Positions 23,470 to 57,782 of a DNA stretch of 64,000 nt are shown piece by piece. Positions within the stretch are counted from its first letter, which is position 1. Each line of letters starts with the position of its first letter. The stretch is from the NCBI GenBank assembly GCA_020348445.1, contig CP070751.1, positions 3,875,765 to 3,939,764 on the forward strand, read 5' to 3'. Under the pieces are notes generated by a model, which worked only from the letters and a program-made list of their open reading frames with translations, did no database searches and was not told the DNA's origin. The translations under genes and the position numbers were made by a program. Origin of the DNA: Thermoplasmata archaeon (GTDB lineage Archaea; Thermoplasmatota; Thermoplasmata; GCA-020350865).

Positions 23470-23535
23470 CAGCCCCGGCCTCTTCGTGCTTAAGAACCCA
23501 ACATATCCAAGCATAACACGAAGAGAAAGGGGCTG
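23470..23535. repeat. Downstream hairpin module of tRNA-Gln(TTG)
   Basis: CAGCCCC/GGGGCTG outer stem; CTCTTCGTG/CACGAAGAG inner stem; core CTTAAGAACCCAACATATCCAAGCATAAC; 97 bp from the tRNA 3' end. Confidence 0.88.
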
Positions 23536-23566
23536 TTTCGTTTCTCTACAATTTAAATTAGAGAAA

Positions 23567-23637
23567 CAGCCCCGGCCAGAATCGAACTGGCGCCAAGAGA
23601 TCCAAAGTCTCTGATGCTACCTCTACACCACGGGGCT
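23567..23637 (-). tRNA. tRNA-Gln(TTG), 71 nt, G73 discriminator
   Basis: AGCCCCG TG GTGT AGAGGTA GCAT C AGAGA CTTTGGA TCTCT TGGC GCCAG TTCGATT CTGGC CGGGGCT G folds as a full cloverleaf. Confidence 0.92.
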
Positions 23638-23666
23638 ATTTGGTTGGAACATTAATTCAGTCAAAT

Positions 23667-23845
23667 AGCCCCTTCGTAGTAAGAAAAGCTTTGGGTTCTT
23701 GCTAGGTTTTCTTTTCTTCCTACCACGGGGCTATTTTACCACCACGGGGCTTCTTAGTTTTATTTATACTTTGATACGAATCCCCTTAGCATTAAGAAAA
23801 GCGTTCAAATTCTAATGGGAATTCTTTTCTTAATACCACGGGACT
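23667..23845. repeat. Two upstream hairpin modules of tRNA-Gln(TTG) plus a short extra 5'-end copy
   Basis: CCACGGGGCT copies end at 23732 and 23751, CCACGGGACT at 23845 (95 and 94 bp steps); inner stems AGTAAGAAAAG/CTTTTCTTCCT and ATTAAGAAAAG/CTTTTCTTAAT. Confidence 0.85.
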
Positions 23846-23875
23846 ACTTTACTTTTATTTATTCAATTCTACTTT

Positions 23876-23941
23876 CAGCCCCGGCCTCCTCGTGCTTAAG
23901 ATCCAAGCGTTTTTAAGCATAACGCGAGGGGGAAGGGGCTG
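23876..23941. repeat. Downstream hairpin module of the second tRNA-Gln(CTG)
   Basis: CAGCCCC/GGGGCTG; CTCCTCGTG/CGCGAGGGG inner stem; core CTTAAGATCCAAGCGTTTTTAAGCATAAC; 97 bp from the tRNA 3' end. Confidence 0.88.
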
Positions 23942-23972
23942 TTTCGTTTCTCTACAATTTAAATTAGAGAAA

Positions 23973-24043
23973 CAGCCCCGGCCAGATTCGAACTGGCGCC
24001 AAGAGATCCAGAGTCTCTGATGCTACCTCTACACCACGGGGCT
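23973..24043 (-). tRNA. tRNA-Gln(CTG), 71 nt, G73 discriminator; paralog of 23567-23637
   Basis: Identical to the TTG gene except at anticodon position 34 and one T-loop base; offset 406 bp. Confidence 0.93.
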
Positions 24044-24072
24044 ATTTGGTTGGAACATTAATTCATTCAAAT

Positions 24073-24165
24073 AGCCCCTTTGCAGTAAAAAAAGCGTTGG
24101 GATAGTGTTGTGTTTTCTTTTTTTACTACCACGGGGCTACTGCACTCTTAAACAACCTCGGGGCT
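24073..24165. repeat. Upstream hairpin module of the second tRNA-Gln(CTG) plus outer 5'-end copy
   Basis: AGCCCC at 24073; AGTAAAAAAAG/CTTTTTTTACT stem; CCACGGGGCT ends 24138 (95 bp step); CCTCGGGGCT ends 24165. Confidence 0.85.
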
Positions 24166-24193
24166 TATTTGATGCAAGAGAATGCATAAACAA

Positions 24194-24202
24194 TTATAAA
24201 AA
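24194..24202 (-). promoter_or_regulatory. Candidate TATA box for the tRNA-Gln cassette
   Basis: TTTTTATAA on the minus strand about 30 bp upstream of the outermost 5'-end copy. Confidence 0.4.
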
Positions 24203-24229
24203 TCATTGGTTGTGAAAAATATGTTTTAG

Positions 24230-25843
24230 CTATTTGGCTACTTCCCCGATTCTTCCCACAACAAATCCCTTGTCCAAGGTGGATAAAAAATAACCTAGCC
24301 TAGGCCCATGCTTCTGATCGAGTATTGCCTGATATACCAGTTGAAAGGCCGTTTTAGACTTGATATTCTGGATCTGAGCCAATTCATAAATCGCATTATG
24401 GATGGCATCAGGTGCCCATTCCTCTTGGGTGAGCTTGATTGATAGGTCTTCAAGGTATTTCTTATGGTCGGATTCCAAGGTTATCTTAGGAGTTTCCTTT
24501 GCGATTGAGAACTTAACCTTTTCAGGTGCAAAATTGTCAAGCCAGAACTTCACACATCCTATTCTCTGCTTTAGGTGATTCTCATCCTCTTTGCTGAGAC
24601 TTTCAAAATGCTCTGCCCTCTTCAAGATATCTAGGATTCCTTCAAAGTCCTCATTGATCTGAACAACACTTACAAGATGTCTATAAGGTATTTGCAAAGG
24701 AAGTTTAGAGGGAAGGGAAAAAGGCTGAGAGAGTTCATAGGTTCTCGCCAATTCCTCCTCAATCTTCTCGATTCGTTTGGACTTGTCATCTGCGCTACCT
24801 TCGAAATATCTTTTCTCTGTTGAGTCGTATTCGTCCACGAGGTTTAGAATTCCAAGGCCTGGATCAAAATCAAGATGCTTAATTGGATTGTTTCTAAGAA
24901 CAAAGTACCTGAAAACCTCGGGAGGGGTCATCTTAAGCATTTTGGCTGCGCTGATCACAACACCAGTCGAGGATGACATGGCACCCTTACCCTTTAACTG
25001 AATCCATTCGTAGACAACATATTGTGGAGCCTTCCTATCAAAGACCTCCTCTGAAATCCTCTTTGCTGTGTCGTACGATCCTCCAGCTGCTGCATGATCT
25101 TTACCAAAAGGTTCGAATGTAACCCCTAAAAACCACCACCTTGCAGGCCAATCAACCCTCCACGGTAGCTTGCCATCGTCTTTTCGCAAATCCGCTTTAC
25201 CTTCATGACCACAAGAGCAAGTATAATTGACATATGGAAATTCATAGCCAATGACCTTGGTTGTGGTAAGCCGCCCACATTCACTGCACTTCGGATTGTA
25301 AGGAAACCAGTCATCGGGAAGATCACGTTTTGAAATATCCTGGAGTATCTCCTTTATCCTATCTTTATTGTCCAGCACCTTTCTAGATGCCTCTGTGTAC
25401 ATTCCCTGAGCGTACATTTCATGGGAGAGAAGGACATTGGCCTCTATCCCAAGAGTTTTTGCAGCATCGAGAAATGGAGTAAGAAAATGCTCGGCATAGG
25501 ACTTGTGGCTACTGCATGGACAGGGAATTTCGGAGAGAGGTTTACCCACGTGCTCCTTATAGCTTTCATCTAAAAAAGGATAAACCTTACGAAGGGGGTC
25601 GATGGTATCGCCAATGTATATCAATTGGGCTTCAACATTCTTCTGTTTAAGACCCCGAGTTATTACCTCACCTGTAAGAATCTCCCGCATATTGCCAACA
25701 TGGATGTCTCCAGAAGGGGTAATCCCTGTAGCTATCACATGCCTTTCAGAAAAACTTTGGAGCCTCTTACTCTCAACGTCAACCCAGTGCATTCTCTCAC
25801 GCAATCGTACGGGCTCTAATAAGCGATCTAGTGGGCACACCAT
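24230..25843 (-). CDS. lysS: Class I lysine--tRNA ligase (likely start MHWVD near 25792)
   Basis: TGITPSGDIHVGN, KLPWRVDWPARW, EPFGKDHAAAGGSYD, MSSSTG and GPRLG motifs. Confidence 0.95.
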   Translation of the reverse strand: MVCPLDRLLEPVRLRERMHWVDVESKRLQSFSERHVIATGITPSGDIHVGNMREILTGEVITRGLKQKNVEAQLIYIGDTIDPLRKVYPFLDESYKEHVGKPLSEIPCPCSSHKSYAEHFLTPFLDAAKTLGIEANVLLSHEMYAQGMYTEASRKVLDNKDRIKEILQDISKRDLPDDWFPYNPKCSECGRLTTTKVIGYEFPYVNYTCSCGHEGKADLRKDDGKLPWRVDWPARWWFLGVTFEPFGKDHAAAGGSYDTAKRISEEVFDRKAPQYVVYEWIQLKGKGAMSSSTGVVISAAKMLKMTPPEVFRYFVLRNNPIKHLDFDPGLGILNLVDEYDSTEKRYFEGSADDKSKRIEKIEEELARTYELSQPFSLPSKLPLQIPYRHLVSVVQINEDFEGILDILKRAEHFESLSKEDENHLKQRIGCVKFWLDNFAPEKVKFSIAKETPKITLESDHKKYLEDLSIKLTQEEWAPDAIHNAIYELAQIQNIKSKTAFQLVYQAILDQKHGPRLGYFLSTLDKGFVVGRIGEVAK

Positions 25844-26408
25844 CCATTTCGTACATAGGTGTCTTGTTCACAATAACCACGGACAACAAAGGATTGGCTC
25901 CCTGCTCCTTCAAATCGGCAATGGCACACTTCATAACATGTCCGGTGCTTATCACGTCATCCACAATTACTACATCCTTGCCCTCCAAGGTAGCATAATT
26001 CGAACTAAAGGTACCCTTGCCTTCATCGGTAACTGGTGGCCTGTAAATACCAAGCTCCAGTCCCAGATCCTCGGCAACCATTGTAGCAAAAGGTATTCCA
26101 TTAATTGCTATACCCACCACGCAATCCACCTTTTCTATCTCCTGCTTTTCCATCTCCTCGAGGATGACATCGGAAAACAAACCCGCTATTAAACCGATGC
26201 GACCTCCGTATACACCGATTGATCTCCAACCAACCTTCACATCTATGGGAGGCTTCTCAACCTTCACATTCCTTGTCAAAAGCCAAGATACAGTATCAAC
26301 AGAAAGGTGCAGTTCATGAGATATTTCACTCTCACTGAGACCGTTTCTCTTGAACTCTAGAGCCTTTTCTACGAGAGCATCGATACTTTTCATAATCAAC
26401 CCTCCCAA
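25797..26408 (-). CDS. gfcR: PyrE-like protein with N-terminal HTH (GfcR-type regulator)
   Basis: KA.E....GL...EI..EL.LS.DTV.WLL HTH; VGIAINGIPFA; VVIVDDVISTG PRPP loop. Confidence 0.8.
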   Translation of the reverse strand: MGGLIMKSIDALVEKALEFKRNGLSESEISHELHLSVDTVSWLLTRNVKVEKPPIDVKVGWRSIGVYGGRIGLIAGLFSDVILEEMEKQEIEKVDCVVGIAINGIPFATMVAEDLGLELGIYRPPVTDEGKGTFSSNYATLEGKDVVIVDDVISTGHVMKCAIADLKEQGANPLLSVVIVNKTPMYEMDGVPTRSLIRARTIA

Positions 26409-26460
26409 CCTAATCGGCTAATGTCTATATTAGATTTTGCTTATAATTATTTCGAGGATA

Positions 26461-27330
26461 TCATTTGCCAAATTCTTTTTTAGAATCCATTGTTGCGGAT
26501 CGAATGTCCTTTTCTAGAAGCCTTTGAAGTTCTGAAAAAAGTTCCATTCTCGTATCCCTTATAGTAGGGCGAAATTCCCTTGCAGTGGAAAGCTCCTTCA
26601 GATCTATATCACATTTTACGACATCTTCCTTGAAATATTCACCTTTTGCTTTAACATCCCCCCTTGGGCCGATTGCGGTATTACCGCCCCAGTATACCAT
26701 ATTCAACTCGGTTCCCACCAGATTAGTGTAAGTGAAGAAAATCGTGTTCTCAATGGCTCTGGAAACGATCACCTTTTCAAAAAATGGTCTCGTAGTCGAG
26801 GGGGAGGCAGAAATACACACCAAGATGTCTGCTCCTTTCAGAGCATATATCTTGGACACCTCTGGGAAGAAACAGTCAAAGCATATCAACATTCCAATTT
26901 TCCCGATCTTGGTTTCAAAAACGGGTAGCTCATTACCATAACCAAAGTATTGGTGTTCCTCAAATGGCCCAAAATTGGCAAGGTGCAATTTTCTGTAACA
27001 GCCTACCTCTTCATTTGGATAGACCAAAACAGAGCTGTTGTAATATAGGCCCTCTGGCTCCATTGCCTTCTCAGGCATGCCGAAGACGATGTGCGTGTCA
27101 TATTCTTTCGCAATCCTTGCAACCTGCATAGCTGAGGGGCCATCAAGAGGTTCGGCAAGCTTCGTGAGGTTGTCACGGCACATATAGCCAGAAAGGAACA
27201 ATTCCCCAAATACAACGATATCTGAATCCGAAGTTTTTACTACATTCTCTATTTTATCCAGATTTGTTTTTTTATCCCCTAAAGCGCAAAATTGCTGTGC
27301 AAGAGTTAATTTCATTACCGTCACCACCAA
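26461..27330 (-). CDS. Carbon-nitrogen hydrolase (nitrilase superfamily)
   Basis: Catalytic triad motifs VFGEL, YRKLHL and ICFD. Confidence 0.9.
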   Translation of the reverse strand: MVVTVMKLTLAQQFCALGDKKTNLDKIENVVKTSDSDIVVFGELFLSGYMCRDNLTKLAEPLDGPSAMQVARIAKEYDTHIVFGMPEKAMEPEGLYYNSSVLVYPNEEVGCYRKLHLANFGPFEEHQYFGYGNELPVFETKIGKIGMLICFDCFFPEVSKIYALKGADILVCISASPSTTRPFFEKVIVSRAIENTIFFTYTNLVGTELNMVYWGGNTAIGPRGDVKAKGEYFKEDVVKCDIDLKELSTAREFRPTIRDTRMELFSELQRLLEKDIRSATMDSKKEFGK

Positions 27331-27520
27331 TAACTTTAGATAGGAATTGCGTTAATATATAATATCTATTATGTTGTATATGCTTGAATAAAATGAGATA
27401 TAGTATTGAGGAATAAAGGAGATTGAATCTGAAAATCAAAATATTACATCCACAAAGAAAATTCTAAATACCAACGATAAATTGTAGATAGGGAATAATT
27501 CGCAAAAGAGGTTTAAAGCC

Positions 27521-28522
27521 ATGGTAATCGCTTTGGAAAGCAAGGAATTGAGGGAAAAGATACTGGCCAATCCAAAAAGGATCCTGAATATTGCGAAGAA
27601 CATGGGTGCCAATGTAAGGCATTCCGAAAAGCTCTTCGACGCTTTAATGAACGATTTTTTAAGTGCAGATGAGTGGCATAGCAAGTTAGAGGAAATGATC
27701 GACCTCACTTCCCTGGCGATAATTGAATCCCTCAGAGCCGAGTTCAAAAAGCAGGGTCTTGGAGAGTTCGATGTAGAGAAATATTTTCTTAGAGCGATGC
27801 TGCAACTGAAGCAGTCCACCCCAGATAGTATAAAAAAGGCTCAGGAATCGATAAAGAGGGCAAAGACCGAGGCGAAAAGGCTTCAAAGTGCAAAAAAGGA
27901 GACTTTGAAAATTACCCTTGAAATAGAGGCTATGCTAAAGGAAGCAAAAGAGCAAAATAAAGCTAGATCACCCAGAAATGAATATCAAAAAATAGCGGGG
28001 GGCCTCAAAGAGACCTTGAAAGTTTTGGATAGTGGTAACTATGAACTTGCGCTTTACATGGCCAAGAGACTTTCAAAAGAGGCTGAAAATCTCAAAGATA
28101 TCAAGCTCATAGCTCTGAGAAACGCGGCGAAAGCAGGACATGTGGTTTCAAAGGTGAAGGGGGAGGATCCTGGGTCTTTACCTTCAAATGCCCTTACAAA
28201 ATTAAACACCTTTTTAAGCACGATAAAATATCTTCTGGAAGAGGAGGACTATCAAACCGCTACACTTCTTGCAAGAGAGGTGAAGTGCGAGGCCGAGAAG
28301 TTTCTGCCTCCCGATAAGGTGGGCATTTCCAAATATGTCTGTCCCATATGTTTTGACTTAAATTGTCCCAATGTACTTTGCAATCTCAGTATTTCACCAT
28401 CGCCACTGGCAAGGGAAACCTGCAGAACTTACTGCACTTGTGGAATGCTCTATCATATCTGTTGCGTTCAAAAGGGAGCCCATTTAACTTGCGTTTCGTG
28501 TTTGAGGCCTTTGAAGGGATAA
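27521..28522 (+). CDS. Hypothetical helical protein with C-terminal RING/PHD-like Zn finger
   Basis: Coiled-coil-like body; CPIC...CTCGMLYHICC...CVSC at the C-terminus. Confidence 0.7.
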   Translation: MVIALESKELREKILANPKRILNIAKNMGANVRHSEKLFDALMNDFLSADEWHSKLEEMIDLTSLAIIESLRAEFKKQGLGEFDVEKYFLRAMLQLKQSTPDSIKKAQESIKRAKTEAKRLQSAKKETLKITLEIEAMLKEAKEQNKARSPRNEYQKIAGGLKETLKVLDSGNYELALYMAKRLSKEAENLKDIKLIALRNAAKAGHVVSKVKGEDPGSLPSNALTKLNTFLSTIKYLLEEEDYQTATLLAREVKCEAEKFLPPDKVGISKYVCPICFDLNCPNVLCNLSISPSPLARETCRTYCTCGMLYHICCVQKGAHLTCVSCLRPLKG

Positions 28523-28608
28523 GGATCTAATTATATACACAAATTTTATTTTTCTTTAAACCACAAATCACATAATACCAAAATACAAGTGATTTAAATG
28601 AGTATAAA

Positions 28609-29304
28609 TCAGGAAAAAAACCGTTCTATTTCATTAATAATGGTTACTTTAATGCTCTCTGCCTTCTTTTGAAGATTATCCATGTCATTTTTCGTTTTGC
28701 TTACGAAATCCTCATCTTCAATATATTTCAGGTTCACCTTCACATTCAAGATAGCCCCCGAAAAACCTGAATATGCTAAAAGAGCTCCTACACCAGAGTC
28801 TGTTATGGCATTTTGGTTACCCTTTGCTGTAGTAAATTGCCCTAATTCTATGACCCTAAGGCATTTTTTCGCCACTAAATAAGGTACACTAGCTGCCCTC
28901 TTGTAGGCACTTTGTAGTTTCTCATTTCTTATGGCCTCATCCTTGATTTTGAAGGCTTCCATAACTTCACAGAAAGCCTCCATATCCTTTTTGGAAAGGC
29001 CAAATAGTTCCTCTCTTAGGGCCTCGGCTTCTTCCAAAATCCTTTTCATTTCGTCCTCAACAACCCCATACTTTTTCTTTCCAATGGTGAGATTGCATAC
29101 CATCGAGATCAGGGCAGCGCCAAAGCTGCCTGCAAGGGCGGCCACACTTCCTCCCCCTGGGGCAGGGGAGTCGGAAGATATTTCCTTTAGTAAATCTTCG
29201 ATGTCGGATTCGATATCCAAAAACTCACTCCCACAACCTGTTCTCAAGAATCTGGGATTTATCAAAATTCTCAATTCTGAGGTAATAATCTGCAGCATCC
29301 ACAA
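28609..29304 (-). CDS. Formiminotetrahydrofolate cyclodeaminase/cyclohydrolase (true start probably near 29219)
   Basis: SDSPAPGGGSVAALAGS.GAAL..MV..LT.GKK; GN.NA.TD; LNV.VNL. Confidence 0.9.
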   Translation of the reverse strand: MWMLQIITSELRILINPRFLRTGCGSEFLDIESDIEDLLKEISSDSPAPGGGSVAALAGSFGAALISMVCNLTIGKKKYGVVEDEMKRILEEAEALREELFGLSKKDMEAFCEVMEAFKIKDEAIRNEKLQSAYKRAASVPYLVAKKCLRVIELGQFTTAKGNQNAITDSGVGALLAYSGFSGAILNVKVNLKYIEDEDFVSKTKNDMDNLQKKAESIKVTIINEIERFFS

Positions 29305-30124
29305 GGGCGTTCATTGGGATTAAACCCACAATCTCACTACCCAAGATTTCAACACCATATCTTTCAGCTTCCTTCTTAATCATCTCAAAAACCCTGAAGA
29401 TCGGGGTTTGTTGATAATTTGTCAGGTTCATGGAGACCTGAACAATTCCTCGCTCCTTGATCTCCAGCCCAAGGGCCTTGACATATCTGAGACCCCCGCT
29501 GGAGTGCCTTATTGCTTTTGCAATAGATTTTGCTACATTTATATCATTGGTGCTTAGATTGACATTGTACGCCACAAGGGGCATTCTTGCCCCGATTACA
29601 GTTGCACCGGCAGTTGGATGCAGACTACTTGGTCCAAAATCGGGTTTTCTATCAGGATCCTTTGAGATAGCTTCCTTTAGGCCTTCATATTGCCCTTTCC
29701 TGATATTAGCAAGGTTCTGTCTTGTCGGTTTTATGGCCGCGTGTTCATAGAGGTATATAGGTATCTTCAATTTATCTGCTACCTCTTGTCCCAGTTCTTT
29801 TGCCATATTCACACAGTCGTCAATAGTAACTCCTGAAATGGGTATAAAAGGCACAACATCTGTGGCCCCGATTCTGGGATGTTCACCAGAATGCTCGTTC
29901 ATATCAATTAGTTCTGCTGCCTTGGATATGGCGGAAAATGCGGCTTTTTTTACACCTTCAGGTTCTCCCACAAACGTGAAAACACTTCTGTTGTGGTCCT
30001 TGTCAGATTCGTAAGCCAGGAGTCTTACTTTTTCGGTATTCTTGATCTGCTGTGCAATGGCCTCTAAAACTTCTTTATTCCGCCCTTCACTGAAGTTCGG
30101 AACGCACTCCACTATTTTTATCAT
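29225..30124 (-). CDS. ftcD: Glutamate formiminotransferase
   Basis: VECVPNFSEGR, D.DHNRSV.T, H.GEHPR.GA.DV.PF.P, HP.AGA..IGAR..L.AYN and QVSMN. Confidence 0.95.
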   Translation of the reverse strand: MIKIVECVPNFSEGRNKEVLEAIAQQIKNTEKVRLLAYESDKDHNRSVFTFVGEPEGVKKAAFSAISKAAELIDMNEHSGEHPRIGATDVVPFIPISGVTIDDCVNMAKELGQEVADKLKIPIYLYEHAAIKPTRQNLANIRKGQYEGLKEAISKDPDRKPDFGPSSLHPTAGATVIGARMPLVAYNVNLSTNDINVAKSIAKAIRHSSGGLRYVKALGLEIKERGIVQVSMNLTNYQQTPIFRVFEMIKKEAERYGVEILGSEIVGLIPMNALVDAADYYLRIENFDKSQILENRLWE

Positions 30125-30162
30125 GATATTCGGCCCTCCAAGGGAATGGATAAAAGGGAGAG

Positions 30163-30828
30163 TTGATATATACGTTTTGGTGTTCTATTAAAAATATACA
30201 ATTTGATAAGGAGTCGGCTGAAGTGAAGAAAAAAGCACTGGAGATGACTTTACAAAAAATACCATCTCATCCTGAGCCAAAACCTCGTTTGGAACAGTAT
30301 GCAACACCTGCCAATATCGCAGCAGATGTGCTTTTTCTTGCCCACTCCTTTGGGGATATTGAAAATAAAGTGGTATTTGACCTAGGATGCGGAACCGGGA
30401 CCTTTGCTATAGGTGCTAAGCTACTTGGAGCAAGGGAGGTAATGGGAATAGATATTGATTCCAAAGCCATTGAAATAGCGACTGAAACGGTAGAGAATTT
30501 CGGTTTGGAGGTGGATTTTCGCATATCTGAGATAAAAGATTTTAATATGAAGTGCGATACTGTGCTACAAAATCCGCCTTTTGGGGCGCAGAAAAAGCAT
30601 GCAGATAGACCCTTTATAAAAGTGGCATTAGACATTGCTAAGGTTGTCTATTCGCTTCATCTTGAAAAAACCCGAGAATTCATCGAAGAAGAAGCAAAAA
30701 AACAAAAAGCAAGGGTAACACATACAAAAAGTTACGAATTCGAAATTAGACATACATTCAAATTTCACAGCAAGGAAAAAAAATTCTTTGATGTGATGAT
30801 GTTCAGAATGGAAAAATTGAGGGAATGA
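30163..30828 (+). CDS. METTL5/COG2263 RNA N6-adenine methyltransferase (start probably GTG 30223)
   Basis: LEQYATP, DLGCGTG, QNPPFG and KHAD.PF motifs. Confidence 0.9.
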   Translation: MIYTFWCSIKNIQFDKESAEVKKKALEMTLQKIPSHPEPKPRLEQYATPANIAADVLFLAHSFGDIENKVVFDLGCGTGTFAIGAKLLGAREVMGIDIDSKAIEIATETVENFGLEVDFRISEIKDFNMKCDTVLQNPPFGAQKKHADRPFIKVALDIAKVVYSLHLEKTREFIEEEAKKQKARVTHTKSYEFEIRHTFKFHSKEKKFFDVMMFRMEKLRE

Positions 30829-30829
30829 G

Positions 30830-32883: not shown

Positions 32884-32908
32884 ATTGGTATTTTAAGAGG
32901 GGATATAT

Positions 32909-40187: not shown

Positions 40188-40502
40188 CTATCGGGAATTG
40201 GGTTGGCCTTATAAGATTTTTGCTTTTAGGTAATTTATTGTTTTTTTGGTGTATTTGCCCTGGATTCTTTGCTTTATGGGCGGGCGGAGGGGGCAAGGAG
40301 GCCTGAGGTTTAAGATCTAAGTATTATAGAAACATAACCAAAGGATAAAGTGTTCCTTGAATAAACTTTAATAGGAATTAAGGGGAACACGGTGGTGGGA
40401 AAGGGCCAAACAATTATCACCCTGGATTGAAAACCTGAAAAAGTTAATATAAAAGGGTTCCATATGAGAGCGTTTATAAAGGGTTGAAAGGCGGATACAT
40501 AA

Positions 40503-41465
40503 ATGGCAAAAATTCTGATCTCAGGCGGCGCGGGATTCATTGGCTCCCATCTTGCAGAGAATCTCGCTCAACTTGAAAACGAGGTTGTAATTCTAGATAA
40601 TATGGACCTATATTATGATATTGGGATAAAAAGGAAGAATATCGAACTGGTTTTAAAAAATAAGAACTGCAGTTTTGTGGAAGGAGATATACTGGACAAA
40701 GAGCAACTAGATAATATCGTCAAAGACGGCATAGAGTTCATCTTTCACGAAGCAGCCCAGCCCGGTGTGAGAGCCTCGGTGGACAATCCGTTAAAACCCA
40801 ATGAGGTGAACGTTAAGGGAACTCTAAATATCTTGGAGGTGGCAAGAAAGAATGATGTGAAACGTGTAATCAATGCCTCTTCTTCTTCGGTTTACGGCAG
40901 GGTGGAATACCTTCCCTTTGATGAAAACCATCCTACCCAACCCCTATCCCCATATGGTGTAAGCAAGTTGGTTGCTGAGCATTATACACGGGTGTATAAC
41001 GAACTCTATGGAATTCCCACGGTGTCCTTACGATATTTCACCGTCTACGGTCCCAGAATGAGACCGGATCTTGCCATCCCGATTTTTACAAAAGCACTAA
41101 TTAAGGGCGAGTCACCCACCATATTTGGAAATGGCGACCAGACTAGGGATCTAACCTATATTGAAGATATCGTATCAGCCAATCTCATGCTCCTTAAAAC
41201 CAGTGGTGCTGACGGAGAAATCCTCAACATAGGAGGAGGAAAGAGGGTTACGGTAAACCAACTGTTCGAATATCTGAAACAATTAATTGGCAGCGATATC
41301 GAGCCAATTTACGGAGAAGAGATAAAAGGGGATGCAAAACATACATTGTCAGATGTCGGGAAGGCCGAAAAATTAATTGGGTATAAACCTACCATAGACA
41401 TAGAAACTGGTTTGGAAAGATTTGTTAAATGGTACAAGAGTAATTTGGATTTTTATCCATATTAA
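40503..41465 (+). CDS. NAD-dependent sugar epimerase/dehydratase
   Basis: GGAGFIGS, ASSSSVYG, PYGVSK, LRYFTVYGP and G.QTRD. Confidence 0.93.
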   Translation: MAKILISGGAGFIGSHLAENLAQLENEVVILDNMDLYYDIGIKRKNIELVLKNKNCSFVEGDILDKEQLDNIVKDGIEFIFHEAAQPGVRASVDNPLKPNEVNVKGTLNILEVARKNDVKRVINASSSSVYGRVEYLPFDENHPTQPLSPYGVSKLVAEHYTRVYNELYGIPTVSLRYFTVYGPRMRPDLAIPIFTKALIKGESPTIFGNGDQTRDLTYIEDIVSANLMLLKTSGADGEILNIGGGKRVTVNQLFEYLKQLIGSDIEPIYGEEIKGDAKHTLSDVGKAEKLIGYKPTIDIETGLERFVKWYKSNLDFYPY

Positions 41466-48980: not shown

Positions 48981-50430
48981 TTAGCTCCTCCTTTATGATT
49001 TGCTCGATTTCGACATTTCTTCGCTCAACAGCTTTTTTGATTATATTTTTTACCATGCTTTTTGTCAAATAGTGATCCAATAATCTGGTTTTCCATCTTG
49101 CATAAGCTGTGAATTCAAATGGCAATATCCTCAATCTATTAACACCAGGAAAATTCCTTTTTATATTGTCCTTTCTAAATGTCAAGCCCGCTATATAGTA
49201 CAAATTCTCTATTTTTGGATTCAATGCATGGCTTAGTGAAAATTTGCTCCAGTCCTGCATATTCTTTGGTGGATCAAATCCCTCTTCAATTGCCATTTTA
49301 TACATGGGAGTTTCCGGATAGGGCGTATATACAAAGAAACTTGCTCTGGCTTTATCATCGACTTTTTTAATCCAATCAGCAAGATCCATGCTCATTTTAA
49401 GTTCTGCTTTTGTCTCTGTGGGTAATCCAGCCATGAACGAATACATGGGACTGATATCTGATTTCGCGATGATTTTTACGGACTTTTTAATTGTTTCCAC
49501 TCCTTCAGCATAATCTTTACAGATAACGTCATTCAGTACTCGTGGGGAACCACTTTCAACTCCCACTTCAAAGCTTTTGCACCCCCCCCATTCCATGGTC
49601 TTAATAATCTCCTTTGATACGCAGTCACAGCTTATCCCGGTATGCCATTCTATTGCACGTTCCCTTAACACTCTTGAAAGCCCCTGGATACGTTTGATTT
49701 TTTTACCTATATTTTCATCACCTAAACTGGCAGTGTTAAAGGACAGTTCACTGAGATACATATTCAATTCTTTCTCGAATTTGTCTATGGGCATGGGTCT
49801 CCATTTGCGTTTATGAAAGGCCTGGACGTAGCAGAATCCGCATCTCCTCCAACATCCCCTCGAGGATAATATCACCATGGAACCACCTTTTACGGCGATT
49901 CGAAAGTATCTTTTTGTTTTATCGTTTAGAGGGAATATCCATCTGTCCGGTTTAATTGGAGGTCTTGGCTGATTTATTATGATATCTCCGTTTTTTTTCC
50001 AGGCCAGGCCATTTATAGTTTGAAAATCGTTTCTATGATTTTTTAAGTAATTCATCAATTCGCAGGCTGTCTCCTCACCTTCTCCTACCACAACATAATC
50101 CACAAACCTTTCCTGTAAGCATTGCCTGGGCAGTAAAGATGGGTGAACTCCGCCAAGGATGGTTTTTATATCAGCATTGTGATTTTTAACCTTTTTTAAG
50201 ACCTCGATCGCTCCCTCTAGTTGATAACCGGTCATAGAAGACACGCCAACGCAAAGAGGATTCTTAGTAAGCGCTTGTGACAAACGGCTTTTGGGATCGA
50301 AACGAAGGTCAATGTACTCGACATCATAACCTGCCCTTTCCAAAGAAGCTCCCACATAGAAAATACTGAAAGCTGGATATATGGAGGGACTATCCTGCGT
50401 AGGTTCCGGATATACAAGTAAACAATCCAT
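48973..50430 (-). CDS. B12-binding radical SAM protein
   Basis: GVSSMTG, GGVH, GEGE, SRGCWRRCGFC and GVESGS. Confidence 0.9.
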   Translation of the reverse strand: MDCLLVYPEPTQDSPSIYPAFSIFYVGASLERAGYDVEYIDLRFDPKSRLSQALTKNPLCVGVSSMTGYQLEGAIEVLKKVKNHNADIKTILGGVHPSLLPRQCLQERFVDYVVVGEGEETACELMNYLKNHRNDFQTINGLAWKKNGDIIINQPRPPIKPDRWIFPLNDKTKRYFRIAVKGGSMVILSSRGCWRRCGFCYVQAFHKRKWRPMPIDKFEKELNMYLSELSFNTASLGDENIGKKIKRIQGLSRVLRERAIEWHTGISCDCVSKEIIKTMEWGGCKSFEVGVESGSPRVLNDVICKDYAEGVETIKKSVKIIAKSDISPMYSFMAGLPTETKAELKMSMDLADWIKKVDDKARASFFVYTPYPETPMYKMAIEEGFDPPKNMQDWSKFSLSHALNPKIENLYYIAGLTFRKDNIKRNFPGVNRLRILPFEFTAYARWKTRLLDHYLTKSMVKNIIKKAVERRNVEIEQIIKEELSE

Positions 50431-50572
50431 ATTATCTCCTTTTTACAGAGGGGACTTTTAATAACATTGCATACGGCCCTGAGGTTTGTTTTACATATTA
50501 ATTTTTATCAAATTCTGATGAATATGAATTATCATCCATGCAAATATTGCCATAATTTTATATGAACTTCTT

Positions 50573-50605
50573 ATACGCAATCCCCTTTTTTCTAATAAAA
50601 GTTAC
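50573..50605. repeat. 33-bp direct repeat, copy 1 (copy 2 at 53549-53581); likely shared promoter element
   Basis: ATACGCAATCCCCTTTTTTCTAATAAAAGTTAC vs ATACGCAATTCACTTTTTTCTAATAAAAGTTAC, 31/33 identical; contains TTTTATTA on the minus strand. Confidence 0.7.
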
Positions 50606-50784
50606 CCCTTAGTTATCTTGATACAAAAGTAGTGACTTTTTTCGATATGTCGGTTAAACATTTGGCAATAGATATTAATATTTTCTGCAATAATCTTAAT
50701 ACGGCATTTTTTTCTCGATGGTTCCTATAGTAATTTATTTAAGTTGTTTTCGCATTTTACTCGATATTCATAGTGAAATAGAAT

Positions 50785-51618
50785 ATGGTCGATTTTATGG
50801 GTAAATCCGATATTTTGATATTTGCCCCTCATCCCGATGATGAGGCATTGGGCTGTGCAGGTCTGATATATTCCTCAATTAAGAAAAATAAGAAGGTTAA
50901 GGTCGTAGTGGTGGCAAACGGTGAATCCAGTGTCGACGGAACTGAAAGGTATTACGGCCATAAACCAGAAACCCAGGATTTCATTAATATTGGGTATGTA
51001 AGACAAAAAGAATCTGTCTCAGCAATGAAAGTTCTGGGCCTTTCTTCTGAAGATGTGATATTTTTAGGATACCCAAACGATGGTCTTATGGAAATGCTCT
51101 CCTCTGATAAATACGACAAAGAATCACCCTATAAATCCGAATTTACGCATTTTGATCGGGTTTCATACGAAAATTCTTATAGCATGGGTGCACCATTCTG
51201 CAAAGAGAGTTTCTATTCTGACATCAAAAGCATTTTCAATGAGTGTAGACCCAGGGAAGTTTATGTAACACATCCACTAGACAGCCATTTTGACCATCAG
51301 GCATGCGGCAGATACATTAGCTCTTATGTAAAACAACTTGATAATTCGATACGCGTCCTTTGCTATGTCATCTCCCCATCGAAAATTCCGTCCCCCAAAC
51401 AAAGCCTTGTGTACAAATTAGCTGGGCAAATGACAGAAAGACATCTTGATAAAACCGCAAAAGAAATGAAAAAAAGATTTATGGACGAATACAAATCTCA
51501 GAGTTATTTATTTGATCAAGTGGCATTTCATTTTAACGTTGAAAGATATTGGAAGCTTAAGCGCGGTGTAAGGGCAAAAATCGCGAAAAAAATATTTCCA
51601 AATTTAAGATTCTTATAA
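50785..51618 (+). CDS. PIG-L family deacetylase
   Basis: APHPDDE, R..ES..A, LGYP.D and D.H.DH motifs. Confidence 0.92.
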   Translation: MVDFMGKSDILIFAPHPDDEALGCAGLIYSSIKKNKKVKVVVVANGESSVDGTERYYGHKPETQDFINIGYVRQKESVSAMKVLGLSSEDVIFLGYPNDGLMEMLSSDKYDKESPYKSEFTHFDRVSYENSYSMGAPFCKESFYSDIKSIFNECRPREVYVTHPLDSHFDHQACGRYISSYVKQLDNSIRVLCYVISPSKIPSPKQSLVYKLAGQMTERHLDKTAKEMKKRFMDEYKSQSYLFDQVAFHFNVERYWKLKRGVRAKIAKKIFPNLRFL

Positions 51619-51623
51619 TATAA

Positions 51624-52778
51624 TCATTTGGTCGATTTTCTTTCGAACTGCTTGATCGCTTTTTTTAGAACCTTTTCATATTCCATTGCTTTCTTTTCCC
51701 ATGTAAAATCCTTGGCCCATTTTATTCCTTTTTCAGATAATTGGTTTCTTTTTTCAGAATCAGTAAGCAGCCTTCCCAAAGTATCGACCCATAAGTCTAT
51801 ATCTTCAGGTGGAAGAAGAACAGCATTTTCTCCTGTTGACTCCCTTAATCCAGGGATATCAGAAGCAACGACTGGCAATCCACAGGCCATGGCCTCGATT
51901 GAAACCAAAGGAAATACCTCGCTTTTTGTTGGAAACATTAAAAGCGTGGCAGAACGATAGTATTTGAACACATCATTGTAAGGAAGAGAACCTGTGAGCT
52001 GGATCTTATCTTCAAGTTTATACATATTTATCTTCTCTTTTAATTCTCCCAAGATATCGCCCTCTCCCACAATGGTCAATCTCAGGTTGGGAAACTGTTT
52101 TACCAATCTTCTAAATATCTCGATCAATTCAAAAACCCCTTTTGTCCTCTGCAATCTTCCCACAAAAAGTAAAGAAAGCTGTTCACCCTCTTTTTTCGCT
52201 TTTATATTTTCAATATCAGGGAGGATATGGGAGGGTATACCAGGAGTGACAACATCTTCGATAGTAAAACCATGGGCATTGGAGATAAGGGACTGTGTAT
52301 TTCGACTTACTGCGGCATACAGTGTGGATTTGTCTGCATTAAAATATTCCTTTGAGTACGGGCCTCCGAGAATGTGAAAGACTGATGGGACACCAAGCTT
52401 AAATGCCAGGTTTGAGAACAATCTGCTGTCCACCCAGTAATGTGTGGATATAACATCCATGTCTTTGATTCTTCTCTTTATTTTAGGTCTTAAAAGTAAA
52501 TTATAATAGAAACTGTATGCCTCTGTTCTATAAGGTGTTAAGCGACGCACGAGTTTGGATGCAAGTCTATTCATAGGTGTGAACCTAAGCCAAAAGGGCA
52601 CAGTTACAACCTCATACGGGCCATCCATAAGCACCTTAAGCGTGGATTTGTGCCGAGTTCTTCCCGTGAATATCGTAACTTCATGTTTTTTGCCTAAATA
52701 TCTAGCAAATTGATGGACTATGGTTTCCGTGCCCCCTGTGATGGTGCCTGCTGAAGGACTTATGAAGCATATTTTCAT
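51624..52778 (-). CDS. Glycosyltransferase family 4
   Basis: GGTE, FVGRL...KG and E.FPLV.IEAMACG.PVV; close paralog of 53611-54756. Confidence 0.93.
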   Translation of the reverse strand: MKICFISPSAGTITGGTETIVHQFARYLGKKHEVTIFTGRTRHKSTLKVLMDGPYEVVTVPFWLRFTPMNRLASKLVRRLTPYRTEAYSFYYNLLLRPKIKRRIKDMDVISTHYWVDSRLFSNLAFKLGVPSVFHILGGPYSKEYFNADKSTLYAAVSRNTQSLISNAHGFTIEDVVTPGIPSHILPDIENIKAKKEGEQLSLLFVGRLQRTKGVFELIEIFRRLVKQFPNLRLTIVGEGDILGELKEKINMYKLEDKIQLTGSLPYNDVFKYYRSATLLMFPTKSEVFPLVSIEAMACGLPVVASDIPGLRESTGENAVLLPPEDIDLWVDTLGRLLTDSEKRNQLSEKGIKWAKDFTWEKKAMEYEKVLKKAIKQFERKSTK

Positions 52779-52850
52779 ATCAAATTCTCCAAGTCCACCG
52801 TAGAAATCACGCTCCCTTCACTTAATTAAATAATTGTAACTATCATTTCT

Positions 52851-53561
52851 TTAGTTGATCTTCTCCTTTATTCCATATACGAAGAATTTATCCCATTCAT
52901 GTAAAGGTAGTTCTGTTCCATCAGCTGTGGAGAAAGCTGACATTTTAATGATTTTAATGCCTAGCGATTCAAGGAATTTACTGATCTCTTTGGGTACATA
53001 GCTTCTCGTATTAAGGCGAGCTTCACTATCTGTGAGATATTCATATTCATAATGTCCTTTATAATTTCTGTCGATAGTTGTAAAAAATAACTGGCCGCCT
53101 TGATCTAATATGCGAACCATTTCGCTTAAGGCATCTTCCCATGAACCATCAAAATTTTGCAATACAGCAATCGAGATAATACAATCCATACTGTTGCTTT
53201 TGAATGGGAGCCTTATGATGTCACCCAAAAAGAACTCAGCAGGAAGATTTTTTTGTCTTGCAACTTTCACCATGTTTGGTGATGGGTCAATCCCGAACAT
53301 ATTAATATTACCGTAATTCTCGCTTAAGAACTCTTCAAAATTACCTACTCCACACCCAACATCAACCATGCTCATATTTTCTTTGATCTCGATATTTGAA
53401 AGGCAAATATTATATCTATATGACATGCTCTTTTTGGATGAATATCCCACTTTTTCGTGATCATTATTAAAAGATTTGGCTCTTTCATCAAACCATTTAG
53501 TCCATTGCATTTTTTCACCATCTTGCATATTATAGCATAAAGAACTACATACGCAATTCAC
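52851..53561 (-). CDS. Class I SAM-dependent methyltransferase (start probably ATG 53510)
   Basis: VDVGCGVG, GIDPS and LPF..NS.D. Confidence 0.88.
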   Translation of the reverse strand: MNCVCSSLCYNMQDGEKMQWTKWFDERAKSFNNDHEKVGYSSKKSMSYRYNICLSNIEIKENMSMVDVGCGVGNFEEFLSENYGNINMFGIDPSPNMVKVARQKNLPAEFFLGDIIRLPFKSNSMDCIISIAVLQNFDGSWEDALSEMVRILDQGGQLFFTTIDRNYKGHYEYEYLTDSEARLNTRSYVPKEISKFLESLGIKIIKMSAFSTADGTELPLHEWDKFFVYGIKEKIN

Positions 53562-53610
53562 TTTTTTCTAATAAAAGTTACTACTTTATTTTTCTAATTG
53601 AGATAAAAAC

Positions 53611-54756
53611 TCATTTGCCAGGGCCTTTTTTGAAGATATCTATAGCCTTTTGCAGTGCTTTTTCATACTCCTCTGCCTTCTTTTCCCAGGTAAAATCCCT
53701 TGCCCATTTTATTCCATTTGCGGACAGATTGCTTCTCTGTTTTTCATCTTTAAGTAGTTTACCTATGGTATCAATCCATAAATCTACATTCTCAGGTGGA
53801 AGGAGGACAGCATTTCCTCCTGTTGAGTCTTTTAAACCGGGAATATCTGAGGCCACGACTGGTAATCCACAAGCCATTGCTTCCAGGGGTACAATACCGA
53901 AAGTCTCGCTTTTGGATGGGAAAATGAACAACGTAGAATCAAAATAATATTCAAATATTTTATCATATGGAACCTGGCCTGTGAAAATTATTTTTTTATG
54001 CAATCCGCGCGATTTCGCCAATTCTTTGAGTTTTCCCATGATGTCTCCATCGCCCACGATCGTTAAACTTAAATTCGAACTTGTCTCGGATAATTTGGAA
54101 AATATATCGATTAATTCAATTAATCCCTTTGTTTCCTGTAGTCTTCCCACAAATAGTAACCTTTTTTCTTGTTCACCCCTCTCTTTTTGCTGATGGGAAA
54201 ACAACCATGAGGGGATACCAGGAGTGACCACATCTTCTATTTTGAAATCATGGGCATCATTTATGATTTTCTGAGTGTATCCACTTGTTGCTACATATAA
54301 GGTAGATCTATCAACATTTAAGAGAGCTTTCGGATAAGGGCCTCCAAGAATGTGAAAAACAGACGGCACATCGAGCTTGAATGCGAGATTGGAGAACAAC
54401 CTGCTGTCCAACCAATAATGGGTGGATATAACGTCCATATCCTTGATCCTCTTTTTTATTTTCGATCTCAGAAATACATTGTAATAGAAGCTAAATGATT
54501 CGGATTTATAGGGTGTTAGGCGGCGAGAAAGCTTGGTTGCAAAATTATTCATGGGCGTGAACCTAGGCCAAAATGGAACAGTTAAAACCTCGTATGAACC
54601 TTTTTTAAGGTTGTTCTGCATGGTTTTATGCCGGCTTCTTCCAGTTAAAACCGTTACCTCATTTTTCTTACTCAATTGCTCTGCAAATTGATGGACTATG
54701 GTTTCCGTCCCTCCTGTGATGGTTCCAACAGATGGGCTTACAAAGCATATCTTCAT
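53611..54756 (-). CDS. Glycosyltransferase family 4
   Basis: GGTE, FVGRL...KG and ETFG.V.LEAMACG.PVV. Confidence 0.93.
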   Translation of the reverse strand: MKICFVSPSVGTITGGTETIVHQFAEQLSKKNEVTVLTGRSRHKTMQNNLKKGSYEVLTVPFWPRFTPMNNFATKLSRRLTPYKSESFSFYYNVFLRSKIKKRIKDMDVISTHYWLDSRLFSNLAFKLDVPSVFHILGGPYPKALLNVDRSTLYVATSGYTQKIINDAHDFKIEDVVTPGIPSWLFSHQQKERGEQEKRLLFVGRLQETKGLIELIDIFSKLSETSSNLSLTIVGDGDIMGKLKELAKSRGLHKKIIFTGQVPYDKIFEYYFDSTLFIFPSKSETFGIVPLEAMACGLPVVASDIPGLKDSTGGNAVLLPPENVDLWIDTIGKLLKDEKQRSNLSANGIKWARDFTWEKKAEEYEKALQKAIDIFKKGPGK

Positions 54757-56402
54757 TTTTTATCCTCCGAATCCATCTGTGAATTACCATTGTTTTTTCC
54801 CCAAAATTTCAATCGTGCTTTTATCCTGTTGAATATATGCTTTATCTCACCTTTTTCTTTGGTATCAAGGCCCTTGAAATAGAACAGTAGAAGATATAAA
54901 CAACATCCAAATCCAAAATACAGGACAATTTCCACTGAATCCTTTATAAGACCGAATAGTGTGGTGTGGGTTCCAATTATATATGGGGGGCGCAGTAATA
55001 TCGCCCCGTACATTGCCAACGATACTATCCCTGCAAAGGGAAATGTCTTGGCAAATACCTGTTTTGCATAGTCCCCCCATTTAATATCAAGAACTTTAAA
55101 AACATGCGCAAGGAACAGAACCTCCAAGAGTACAAATGGGATGGTGGTTCCCAAAGCTACACCAGTAAGACCATAACCTTGCTGCACAAGAAAGACGCTG
55201 AGACATAGGTTCAAAAGAGCCACAATACCATAATATCTCACGAACTTTTTTATCCTGTTCATGCCGATAAGTATCTGGGTGGCAACGTAATTGTTAAAAT
55301 CGAAAAAAATGGAAATCATCAAAATCTGAACAATTATGTAATATTGACCGTACTCGTCTCCCATCCATATCGTTAACATTCCCTCAGAGAGAAAAAACAA
55401 TGGTACACCCAAAGCGAGACTCAGAGCAAGTACGTATTTAGTTCCTCTTAAAAACAGCCTTCTTAGAGCTGGGAGGTTGTCCGTTGCCTCCAACTCCGAT
55501 GCTGCGGGAATTACGGCGTATAATCCTATTTCCGGTATTCTGGTTGGTATACCATAAAGTTTCCATGCTGCCTGATAAAATGTTAATAAGGTTACATCCA
55601 CCAGTAATCCAATCACCAACCTATCCGTGTAATATATAACCATTATAAAGACAGAGAGAAGAAATACGCTCATACTGAGATCCATTAGAACCTTGATCAT
55701 ATCACGTTTCACATATGAAAATTTGATGGTAACATGGGGTAATAATTTTTGAACAAACCAGGCAGTTAGAATAAATCCAATCAACCCAACACAGGAGGTA
55801 TAAAATACCAACTCAACCACACCCATTCCCATAGACAGCACAAGAACAACAACGACAACGTTTACAATGGACATAATGAAAGTTATCATTGCTAAAATAT
55901 CATATCTCTGAAGACCCGCTAAAATACCCTTAAGCGATGCAAGGGATAGGCTGAACATGAAGATTGCACCTAGGATATAGATTATGGCTCTTGCCTTGGG
56001 GTAAAAATCAGGTGCATCTAACGCAGGAAATGTTCCAGATAGGAATTCCAATAAAAAAGTACCAATTAAAAAAATAATCAATGCACTTGCGATGCCAATA
56101 AAAAGGAATATAAAAAACGAGGTGTTGATAACCTCATTAAGCTTTTCTTTATCATCCTCGGCATGATATTGAGCCACGAATTTTACAAGTGAGTTGCCTA
56201 TTCCCAGGTCTAAAATCCCGAAATAACCTGTTATCGCCGTGATAAATAAATATATCCCATATTCTGTCTCCCCAATATTCCCTACAATATACCAAAACAA
56301 AACAAATGTTAGGGCAAAACCCCAGAAGCGAATTGCGTAATTCACGATGGTATTTCTAATCAACTTACTTTTAACGCTCAAGTTTTTAACCCCGCAATTC
56401 AC
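54753..56402 (-). CDS. Wzx/MOP-family oligosaccharide flippase
   Basis: 12-14 TM helices, DLG......KFVA and Y.D..VIG motifs. Confidence 0.88.
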   Translation of the reverse strand: MNCGVKNLSVKSKLIRNTIVNYAIRFWGFALTFVLFWYIVGNIGETEYGIYLFITAITGYFGILDLGIGNSLVKFVAQYHAEDDKEKLNEVINTSFFIFLFIGIASALIIFLIGTFLLEFLSGTFPALDAPDFYPKARAIIYILGAIFMFSLSLASLKGILAGLQRYDILAMITFIMSIVNVVVVVLVLSMGMGVVELVFYTSCVGLIGFILTAWFVQKLLPHVTIKFSYVKRDMIKVLMDLSMSVFLLSVFIMVIYYTDRLVIGLLVDVTLLTFYQAAWKLYGIPTRIPEIGLYAVIPAASELEATDNLPALRRLFLRGTKYVLALSLALGVPLFFLSEGMLTIWMGDEYGQYYIIVQILMISIFFDFNNYVATQILIGMNRIKKFVRYYGIVALLNLCLSVFLVQQGYGLTGVALGTTIPFVLLEVLFLAHVFKVLDIKWGDYAKQVFAKTFPFAGIVSLAMYGAILLRPPYIIGTHTTLFGLIKDSVEIVLYFGFGCCLYLLLFYFKGLDTKEKGEIKHIFNRIKARLKFWGKNNGNSQMDSEDKK

Positions 56403-56633
56403 ACATCAGGTTAATAACCTCATATTATTAGCAGATTACAGGATATTCTGGTACCTTATCAATGTTTTGAGGTAGAGAACGATTATTTATACCATATAAA
56501 ACAGTTATTTTCCTATGATTAATAGGGGAAAGGTCCAAAATGTGAATTTAAAGATACCTCCTATGGAAAACTTTACTTTCCAAGTAAGACATATCCCTTT
56601 GAATTTATATTTATTACAATAAAACATCGGGAT

Positions 56634-57092
56634 TTGGTGAATAATATGGAATTACTATCCAAATACCATGTAATAAAAGACGCCGAGATAGGTGAAGGAA
56701 CCATAGTAAGGCATTACGTCAATCTATATGGCTGTAAAATCGGAAAAAACTGCAAAATAGCCTCCTTTGTTGAGATTCAAAAGAATGTTGAAATCGGTAA
56801 TAACTGCAAAATCGAAGCCTTTGCATATATGCCAACTGGAGTAACTATTGAGGATGAAGTGTTCGTAGGGCCACATGCGTGTTTTACAAATGATAAGAAA
56901 CCAAGCGCAAAAGGGGATTGGGAGGTTATGCCCACGCTCGTTAAAAAAGGTGCATCCATAGGAGCCAATGCCGTGATTTTGTGTGGAGTTACCATAGGGG
57001 AGAACGCCATAATTGGTGCAGGCAGCGTGGTAACAAAGGATGTTCCACCAAATACAGTAGTGGTGGGCAATCCCGCTAGACCTATTAAATAA
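56634..57092 (+). CDS. Hexapeptide-repeat sugar N-acyltransferase (WbpD-like)
   Basis: IG.NCKI repeats, GVTIED.VFVGP...[12 protein letters not shown] and GAGSVVT..VP. Confidence 0.9.
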
Positions 57093-57135
57093 AAAGAATG
57101 GAAAATTATCATTTTGAAAAAAAGGAGGTGCTATA

Positions 57136-57594
57136 ATGCAAGCAACAATAGAAACCAATAGAGGTATGATATTACTGGAACTGTTTGATAAGGACACCCC
57201 AAAAACGGTGGAGAACTTCGTGAAGCTGGCAAAAGGTGGATTTTACGACGGTCTTAAATTCCACCGCGTGATCGCCGATTTCATGATCCAGACCGGTTGT
57301 CCAAAGGGAGATGGAACAGGGGGACCTGGATATCAGTCGGATTGTGAGATCATGCCCCACCTGAAACATGAACCTGGCACCCTGTCCATGGCACATGCAG
57401 GGACCTGCGAGCACAGTGGCTCTGGTGAAAAAATATCGGGTCGATGCTCCAATGGGTCGCAGTTCTTCATAACCCATGTTGCCACACCCTGGCTTGATGG
57501 TAAGCACACAGTGTTCGGGCGTGTTTTGGAGGGCAAGGACGTGGTGGACAGTATCAAGCAGGGTGACACGATTCAGAAGGTTACAATACAATGA
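57136..57594 (+). CDS. Cyclophilin-type peptidyl-prolyl cis-trans isomerase
   Basis: TP.TV.NF, FHRVI..FMIQ.G, LSMAH, GSQFFIT and [10 protein letters not shown]. Confidence 0.95.
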
Positions 57595-57633
57595 TAATTG
57601 GTACCAATAAGCATCTTATTGATATCCGATTTT

Positions 57634-57782
57634 GTGGAGCCAGCGGGTGTTCGAGATTAAGAACTCGTTAACGTCCAAACATAACTCGAACACGAGCTGG
57701 GTCCACGAATGACACAGCGGGATGTTTGAGCTTAAGAATCCTATGATGTCCAAGTATAACTCGAACATCAAGCTGGGTCCAC
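57634..57782. repeat. Two downstream hairpin modules of tRNA-Ala(CGC)
   Basis: Inverted copies GCTGGGTCCAC at 57696-706 and 57772-82; inner stems GTGTTCGAG/CTCGAACAC and GATGTTTGAG/CTCGAACATC; cores ATTAAGAACTCGTTAACGTCCAAACATAAC and CTTAAGAATCCTATGATGTCCAAGTATAAC. Confidence 0.88.

Follow-up and report, generated by a model that had tools for sequence, protein, structure and literature searches.

A genus-restricted hairpin repeat with a common asymmetric core, found mostly behind archaeal tRNA genes

A 29-nucleotide (nt) core recurs behind unrelated tRNA genes in a 64,000-nt stretch of a Thermoplasmata archaeon genome (the window; contig CP070751.1, positions 3,875,765 to 3,939,764), where it is the asymmetric top of a hairpin repeat and the recognition-type module of that repeat. 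The repeat is real, restricted to one genus and apparently undescribed. Our favored reading, to which we give a probability of about one half, is that of a genus-specific fold-back repeat akin to repetitive extragenic palindromic (REP) sequences and miniature inverted-repeat transposable elements (MITEs), whose invariant unpaired bases would serve as the recognition site for one factor. The source genome of the window (G000) is a 5.16-Mb metagenome-assembled genome (MAG) of 41.5% G+C, with 353 contigs joined by runs of N. We refer to the plus strand of the window, on which the core reads as quoted here, as the motif strand; the host tRNA genes all lie on the minus strand.

An earlier reading of the sequence alone had listed four cores and a looser copy in the window, and all five strings are present where it placed them (Table 1). 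The looser copy, at 20774, turned out to be a true diverged relative, sharing an 18-base run with a copy behind a tRNA-Ala(UGC) gene elsewhere in the genome. We scanned the window for the pattern TTAAGA-N12-16-AARYATAA and found five matches, all on the plus strand, against 0.02 expected from shuffles; the fifth, at 40310, was absent from the earlier list and lies away from any tRNA. The basic module of about 50 nt consists of a 9-bp stem closing the core, which carries TTAAGA on its 5' side and a near-invariant ATAAC on its 3' side, separated by 18-19 bases that are largely free. The stem is variable in sequence, with complementarity kept throughout the copies. Both-sided changes affect eight of the nine stem pairs in an alignment of 25 copies from this genome (A1), and all nine in a set of 34 distinct copies taken from the other four species, in which 96-97% of cells are paired. 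For the latter set, the stem score was reached by none of 500 shuffles and slid controls paired at 21-40%. In these 34 copies TTAAGA, A41, A43 and A44 never vary, and conservation is above 90% at T42 and C45; the intervening loop bases are free to vary, with the exception of one T that reaches 90%. The short CTT/AAG helix that the sequence-only reading had drawn inside the core fared poorly next to this flanking stem, with 67% of its cells paired and its closing pair present in only 15 of 34 copies. An alternative UUA/UAA pairing is invariant, and therefore covariation cannot assess it. Read on the motif strand, the stem contains more G-T than A-C combinations (25 versus 8 in G000, 11 versus 4 in the other species), and tandem G-A mismatches are located on the same strand.

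We then determined how widely the repeat occurs. An nhmmer profile, seeded with 12 hairpin-context matches and iterated once, returned 56 matches in G000 at a cut-off of E<0.01, and a covariance model derived from A1 (R1) returned 63. We scanned R1 over the five genomes of the genus and 36 genomes from 18 other families of the class: the four sister genomes gave 24-43 matches each, and the 36 genomes from other families gave none. The complete 3.2-Mb chromosome of one of the sister genomes (G001) holds 35 copies. The exact stem-plus-core pattern is found in only 4 MAGs among 185,579 species genomes, labeled Thermoplasmata or Methanomassiliicoccales and including the complete chromosome CP070739.1, and in 14 metagenome contigs. 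It was not found in any of the viral contigs searched, and we discarded a viral or plasmid origin on this ground. A restriction-site reading of CTTAAG was also ruled out, as this word is not depleted.

We further investigated the association with tRNA genes, which we called with Rfam and ARAGORN, reading by eye the intron-rich genes missed by both. The 56 profile matches in G000 comprise 24 near Rfam or ARAGORN tRNAs, 18 beside missed intron-containing tRNA genes, 10 that belong to a second subfamily described below (class B) and 4 that remain unplaced; 42 of 56 thus lie downstream of tRNA genes. The 24 copies near called tRNAs are all within 320 nt downstream, where about 0.2 would be expected, an enrichment at tRNA 3' ends far above the background frequency on which the sequence-only reading would have foundered. 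The core is antisense to the tRNA in 38 of the 42 copies and sense in 4, and in these four exceptions the core alone is flipped, the arms being unchanged. On chromosome G001, 15 of the 35 matches fall within 310 nt downstream of the 28 Rfam tRNAs, 14 of them antisense, and among 17 matches on metagenome contigs 11 are behind tRNAs, 9 of them antisense, with the remainder at contig ends. Units form arrays of one to six, the first of which follows the tRNA after an AT-rich spacer of about 25 nt. The proposal that one tiny element family colonized tRNA 3' ends is therefore borne out by the covarying stem, the invariant core and the presence of 24-63 copies in each of five genomes, mostly behind tRNAs. 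A genome-wide scan had been suggested to see whether the motif is confined to tRNA trailers; the link to tRNAs is strong, but there is no confinement, since class B occupies G-rich motifs upstream of promoters.

The arms of the tRNA-linked units (class A) are made of tRNA-end sequence. On the tRNA strand, a unit opens with a complement of the tRNA end, which a pyrimidine-rich mismatch separates from the inner hairpin that bears the core; a direct copy of the tRNA end then follows, and after it a T-rich trailer. By arm lengths read by eye from printed arms rather than scored automatically, the complement arm spans 9-11 nt (acceptor 3' strand, discriminator and the next C) and the direct-copy arm 11-14 nt (T-stem 3' strand, acceptor 3' strand and discriminator), and the trailer after the latter resembles that of the tRNA. 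We compared the first bases of the outer arms with the REP head, GTAG or CGTC, at the foot of the hairpin: most arms begin with GTG, which is simply C-A-C of the tRNA end in complement. Where units keep their own outer arms, as seen at tRNA-Ala(UGC), a similar AT-rich spacer follows every unit; the hairpins of some other arrays are joined by a 13-nt linker within a single pair of outer arms, and the two tRNA-Ala(CGC) units of the window by 4 nt only (57707-57710). Different modules are found downstream of a tRNA-Thr gene and two long-arm tRNA genes (G000:C1:4743600-4743740, 2568300-2568450 and 3004500-3004640), and there too the module closes with a directly repeated tRNA 3' end, so that gene-end copying extends beyond the core family.

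Such a layout could indicate that the units act as RNA on the tRNA strand, either read through from the tRNA or separately transcribed. An acceptor-like outer stem, a long arm, the T-stem, the acceptor 3' strand, the discriminator and a tRNA-like T-run would form a minihelix resembling a tRNA, or else a spare 3' end, for RNase Z or RNase P to cut, and this RNA could be a processing signal, a decoy or a raw T-loop intron. In every case the direct copy takes in the 3' strands of T-stem and acceptor together with the discriminator and the C after it, and a tRNA-like T-rich trailer is present where units keep their own arms (tRNA-Ala(UGC) and the tRNA at 154342). Units are bounded within a word that resembles the T-loop (CTCGAAC versus TTCGAA), T-loop introns are present in tRNAs of this genome, and the inner hairpin folds slightly better on the tRNA strand in 42 of 58 copies. 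We nevertheless consider this explanation rather unlikely: the G-T versus A-C counts, at 36 to 12, favor the opposite strand, most read-through should end at the T-run that immediately follows the tRNA, class B has the core without a tRNA end, copies decay or vanish in sister species, the G3-U70 pair of tRNA-Ala is turned into A-U in the hairpin and no bulge-helix-bulge can be drawn. RNase P RNA is present in four of the five genomes, so no special end-processing route is needed; this also led us to reject the idea of an RNase P-less lineage that needs special pre-tRNA structures.

The same G-T pairs and tandem G-A mismatches would instead suit an RNA made from the motif strand, which might be a protein-bound hairpin that stops or insulates transcription toward the tRNA, or a small RNA that pairs with the tRNA 3' end through its 5' arm. 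The orientation bias of 38 to 4 relative to the tRNA is consistent with this, as is the short motif-strand T-run after each hairpin in linker-type arrays. This is unlikely in our view, as no promoter was found at a fixed distance from the units, only about half of the neighboring genes face the tRNA, class B is placed upstream of the next gene's promoter and four flipped copies are tolerated. A function as 3' untranslated region or terminator of convergent neighbors was set aside for want of any neighbor orientation bias, as judged by a crude open reading frame heuristic.

Comparison of the orthologous cyclophilin-tRNA-Ala(CGC) locus in four species shows how the units evolve. The four loci carry 2, 3, 1 (plus a remnant) and 1 copies, the loops are unrelated between species, and the arms in G003 match that species' own, different acceptor sequence. 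G001 has half a hairpin left at this locus. Sister species thus differ in the number of copies, and individual copies undergo decay. In G002, the locus orthologous to window positions 57600-57900 (L044, G002:C104) contains only the last 20 bases of tRNA-Ala(CGC) after the hairpin, the rest of the gene being missing there; the fragment may represent a remnant or a split gene, or reflect a break in the assembly.

A further explanation is neutral: template switching during replication of tRNA genes would have left the units behind as inverted triplications of the gene end, with a core that no factor reads. Two switches yield the direct, inverted, direct order observed here, and templated correction would keep palindrome arms matched without selection. 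We find this improbable, given that 11 core bases are invariant or near-invariant in about 90 distinct copies from five species next to a randomized loop, and that the same core is present at unrelated tRNAs and at G-rich sites.

Class B belongs to the same family as the tRNA-linked hairpins, as shown by the shared core. It combines the core hairpin with a second hairpin and is represented by 10 matches at E<0.01, or 17 with weaker ones. These hold a fixed position within a recurrent G-rich motif, flanked by its G-rich blocks, and in most cases a co-oriented gene follows 130-390 nt downstream, with its promoter in between. The class B unit in the window has this setting, between G-rich blocks and upstream of the promoter of an epimerase-like gene at 40504, and its orthologous site is empty in two sister genomes. 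At three orthologous loci, class B is present in some species and the G-rich motif is uninterrupted in others. Copies shared by two species keep the stems and the core, and their loop is randomized. No clear target duplication emerged when filled and empty class B sites were compared. The G-rich motif upstream of promoters is composed of an AT-rich lead, GGGTGGGMGGAGGGGG, four bases and GGATGGWGGG; it is seen in the window at ~40278-40300 and ~60703-60740 and has 35 genome matches with at most two substitutions, versus 18 for the reversed word. Most class B copies, including that of the window, keep CTAT-GA ... GA-ATAG in the second hairpin, and its tandem G-A could be a K-loop-like protein site.

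The units could also be scars or sites of site-specific recombination, of attachment (att) or dif type, used by an integrase or XerA with tRNA 3' ends as its target, the direct copy being a displaced att half. A direct repeat of the tRNA 3' end starting in the T-loop region is the classical mark of tRNA-gene integration, and the ATAA-containing words recall Xer half-sites, as the sequence-only reading had pointed out. However, the inserts are only about 100 bp long and have neither cargo nor integrase, an attP of its own would be needed for each tRNA, no second symmetric arm is found around a short spacer, 56-63 copies per genome occur with tandem arrays of up to six, and the pattern is absent from viral contigs, all of which makes this origin highly improbable. 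The resemblance to Xer/dif itself did not survive closer comparison. Such a site needs two inverted arms of ~11 bp around a 6-8-bp spacer and exists once per replicon; the core is asymmetric with no partner half-site in any copy, the stem sequence is variable, and dozens of copies are present per genome, including the 35 on chromosome G001. Integron attC sites lie between gene cassettes and carry R'' and R' boxes, RYYYAAC pairing with GTTRRRY, at the two ends of the folded site; they were likewise rejected, as no unit offers a GTTAT with which its ATAAC could pair, and no cassettes surround the units.

We return to the fold-back repeat recognized by one factor. A single trans-acting factor would read the element as a folded single strand of DNA or RNA, the motif strand being the likelier one to fold. 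Units would multiply by local duplication between the T-loop region of the tRNA and the T-loop-like inner stem, a unit would occasionally insert elsewhere, and the core would flip by inversion between the arms. The sequence-only reading had proposed the binding site of one trans-acting protein; the invariant unpaired bases, the covarying stem and the free loop fit this proposal, and the protein itself stays conjectural. As a whole, the earlier interpretation of the core is partly supported.

Several observations weigh against this reading. No enzyme or binding protein could be tied to the family, Y1 transposase genes having been examined: five Y1_Tnp matches were found and no repeat copy lies near any of them. 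The end hairpins of an IS200/IS605-like insertion sequence in the genome are unrelated to the repeat and have no flanking copies of it, and only a weak TnpB-type match was recovered. The units lack the terminal inverted repeats and flanking target duplications typical of transposons, the direct repeat of class A being an 11-14-nt tRNA end in an asymmetric position. Arms tailored to each tRNA should not be expected of a mobile element, and the reading does not account for the inverted tRNA-end copy. The folding energies of the two strands point to no clear strand, and copy counts overstate independence, the copies being related to one another. Finally, the core and stem are intact at orthologous sites where coding DNA is 70-75% identical and the loop is randomized, which could reflect a host function just as well as selfish spread. 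A bolder possibility, about which we are rather doubtful, is a new kind of gene-end-anchored fold-back element, whose enzyme would read TTAAGA/ATAAC on the folded strand and, when the element inserts or amplifies, copy the neighboring gene end in both orientations, leaving the tRNA intact; it could seed T-loop introns and split tRNA genes.

Among known systems, the closest comparisons are with REP sequences, bacterial interspersed mosaic elements and REP doublets forming hairpins (REPINs), which are bacterial extragenic palindromes mobilized by RAYT transposases of the Y1 HUH type. Like these, the units are short non-coding imperfect palindromes present in tens of copies, strictly intergenic, found singly or clustered in arrays and lineage-specific, with compensatory changes in the stem and a preferred hairpin strand. 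Unlike them, the copies are wrapped in adjacent tRNA-end sequence and the host is an archaeon, and the conserved part is an asymmetric 29-nt loop, whereas in REP it is the stem and a GTAG head. MITEs and the palindrome-associated transposable elements (PATEs) derived from IS200/IS605 are similarly small, gene-less and hairpin-bearing with a defined insertion spot, and the two-hairpin class B unit resembles a PATE-like mini-element made of a left and a right end. However, the two hairpins of a class B unit are not alike, and the resident IS200-type hairpins bear no relation to them. The rtT region, a set of tandem 178-bp repeats downstream of the Escherichia coli tyrT operon, offers another parallel: at the tyrT tRNA-Tyr genes as here, tandem units stand behind a tRNA, each with a direct copy of its 3' end. 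Yet the tyrT repeats exist at one locus only, with no inverted copy and no hairpin core common to different tRNAs. Integrative elements in tRNA genes share the direct repeat of the tRNA 3' segment and template-switching inverted triplications share the direct, inverted, direct order, but here we find ~100-bp units without integrase or cargo, with a core common to all loci. We came across no account of such tRNA-flanking hairpins in our literature searches.

Other RNA structures were tried and rejected. A bulge-helix-bulge motif has two 3-nt bulges, one on each strand, with a 4-bp helix between them, and our hand reading of the core gives a 1-nt bulge or a one-sided 5-nt bulge; the 3-bp helix required by the 5-nt alternative is the one paired in 67% of cells. 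A kink-turn or box C/D-like K-loop, defined by tandem sheared G-A pairs that conserved GA on both strands form beside a 3-nt bulge, was dismissed, as the TGATGT-like loop word lacks the conserved GA and no C/D family rises above chance. A reading of the core as an anticodon loop with intron, hand-drawn against the alignments, failed a defining feature. Rfam 15 at gathering thresholds reported only four tRNAs in the window, and E-value searches over two units returned nothing meaningful for either class.

If one factor reads the loop, the choice and copying of targets by small palindromic repeats can be studied with these units, as a compact natural system, in archaea, where, to our knowledge, almost nothing of the REP/RAYT kind has been characterized. 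Their tRNA-tracking arms pose a mechanistic puzzle, namely a repeat with target-derived sequence in both orientations. The layout also bears on an open question of archaeal tRNA evolution, as it provides a concrete route from duplicated tRNA ends to introns or split genes. At a practical level, the units are a source of confusion in tRNA and repeat annotation and of breaks in the assemblies of these MAGs.

Table 1. Hairpin units, host tRNA genes and spacer in the window (positions in the 64,000-nt stretch)
Feature	Position	Strand	Details
Two units of diverged subfamily behind tRNA-Gln(CUG, A73)	20662-20856	+	Inner stem AGAAATA/TATTTCT; core-like loop 20774-20800 shares 18 bases with canonical copy
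Hairpin unit behind tRNA-Gln(UUG)	23470-23535	+	Core 23489-23517; inner stem CTCTTCGTG/CACGAAGAG; outer arms are complement and copy of tRNA 3' end
tRNA-Gln(UUG), host gene	23566-23638	-	
Hairpin unit behind tRNA-Gln(CUG)	23876-23941	+	Core 23895-23923
tRNA-Gln(CUG), host gene	23972-24044	-	
Class B unit without adjacent tRNA	40301-40390	+	Hairpin 1 with core 40301-40345; second hairpin 40350-40390
Distal hairpin unit behind tRNA-Ala(CGC)	57634-57706	+	Core 57656-57685; arms GTGGAGCCAGC / GCTGGGTCCAC
Proximal hairpin unit behind tRNA-Ala(CGC)	57711-57782	+	Core 57731-57760
AT-rich spacer, ~25 nt, from first hairpin to 3' end of tRNA-Ala(CGC)	57783-57806		On tRNA strand, T-run then TATA-like stretch
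tRNA-Ala(CGC), host of two units	57807-57881	-	

The IS200/IS605-like element of the source genome is present as two identical copies at contig ends (G000:C1:2860309-2860969 and 3338969-3339629) with a 157-aa Y1 transposase, and both of its ends carry CAAATGAATA followed by a hairpin. The tRNA genes of this genome also have features of their own. T-loop introns of one sequence family, missed by Rfam and ARAGORN, are found near 668000, 2879700 and 5100100 of G000:C1; they contain a CCCGTGG hairpin and CCACT and end in GGCTCGGAAAT, and the CCGTGG...CCACT hairpin also occurs in tRNA 5' flanks. A dense cluster of about 20 tRNA genes at G000:C1:4640571-4643566 is devoid of hairpin modules, unlike the dispersed tRNA genes, and could be of foreign origin or part of a mobile element.

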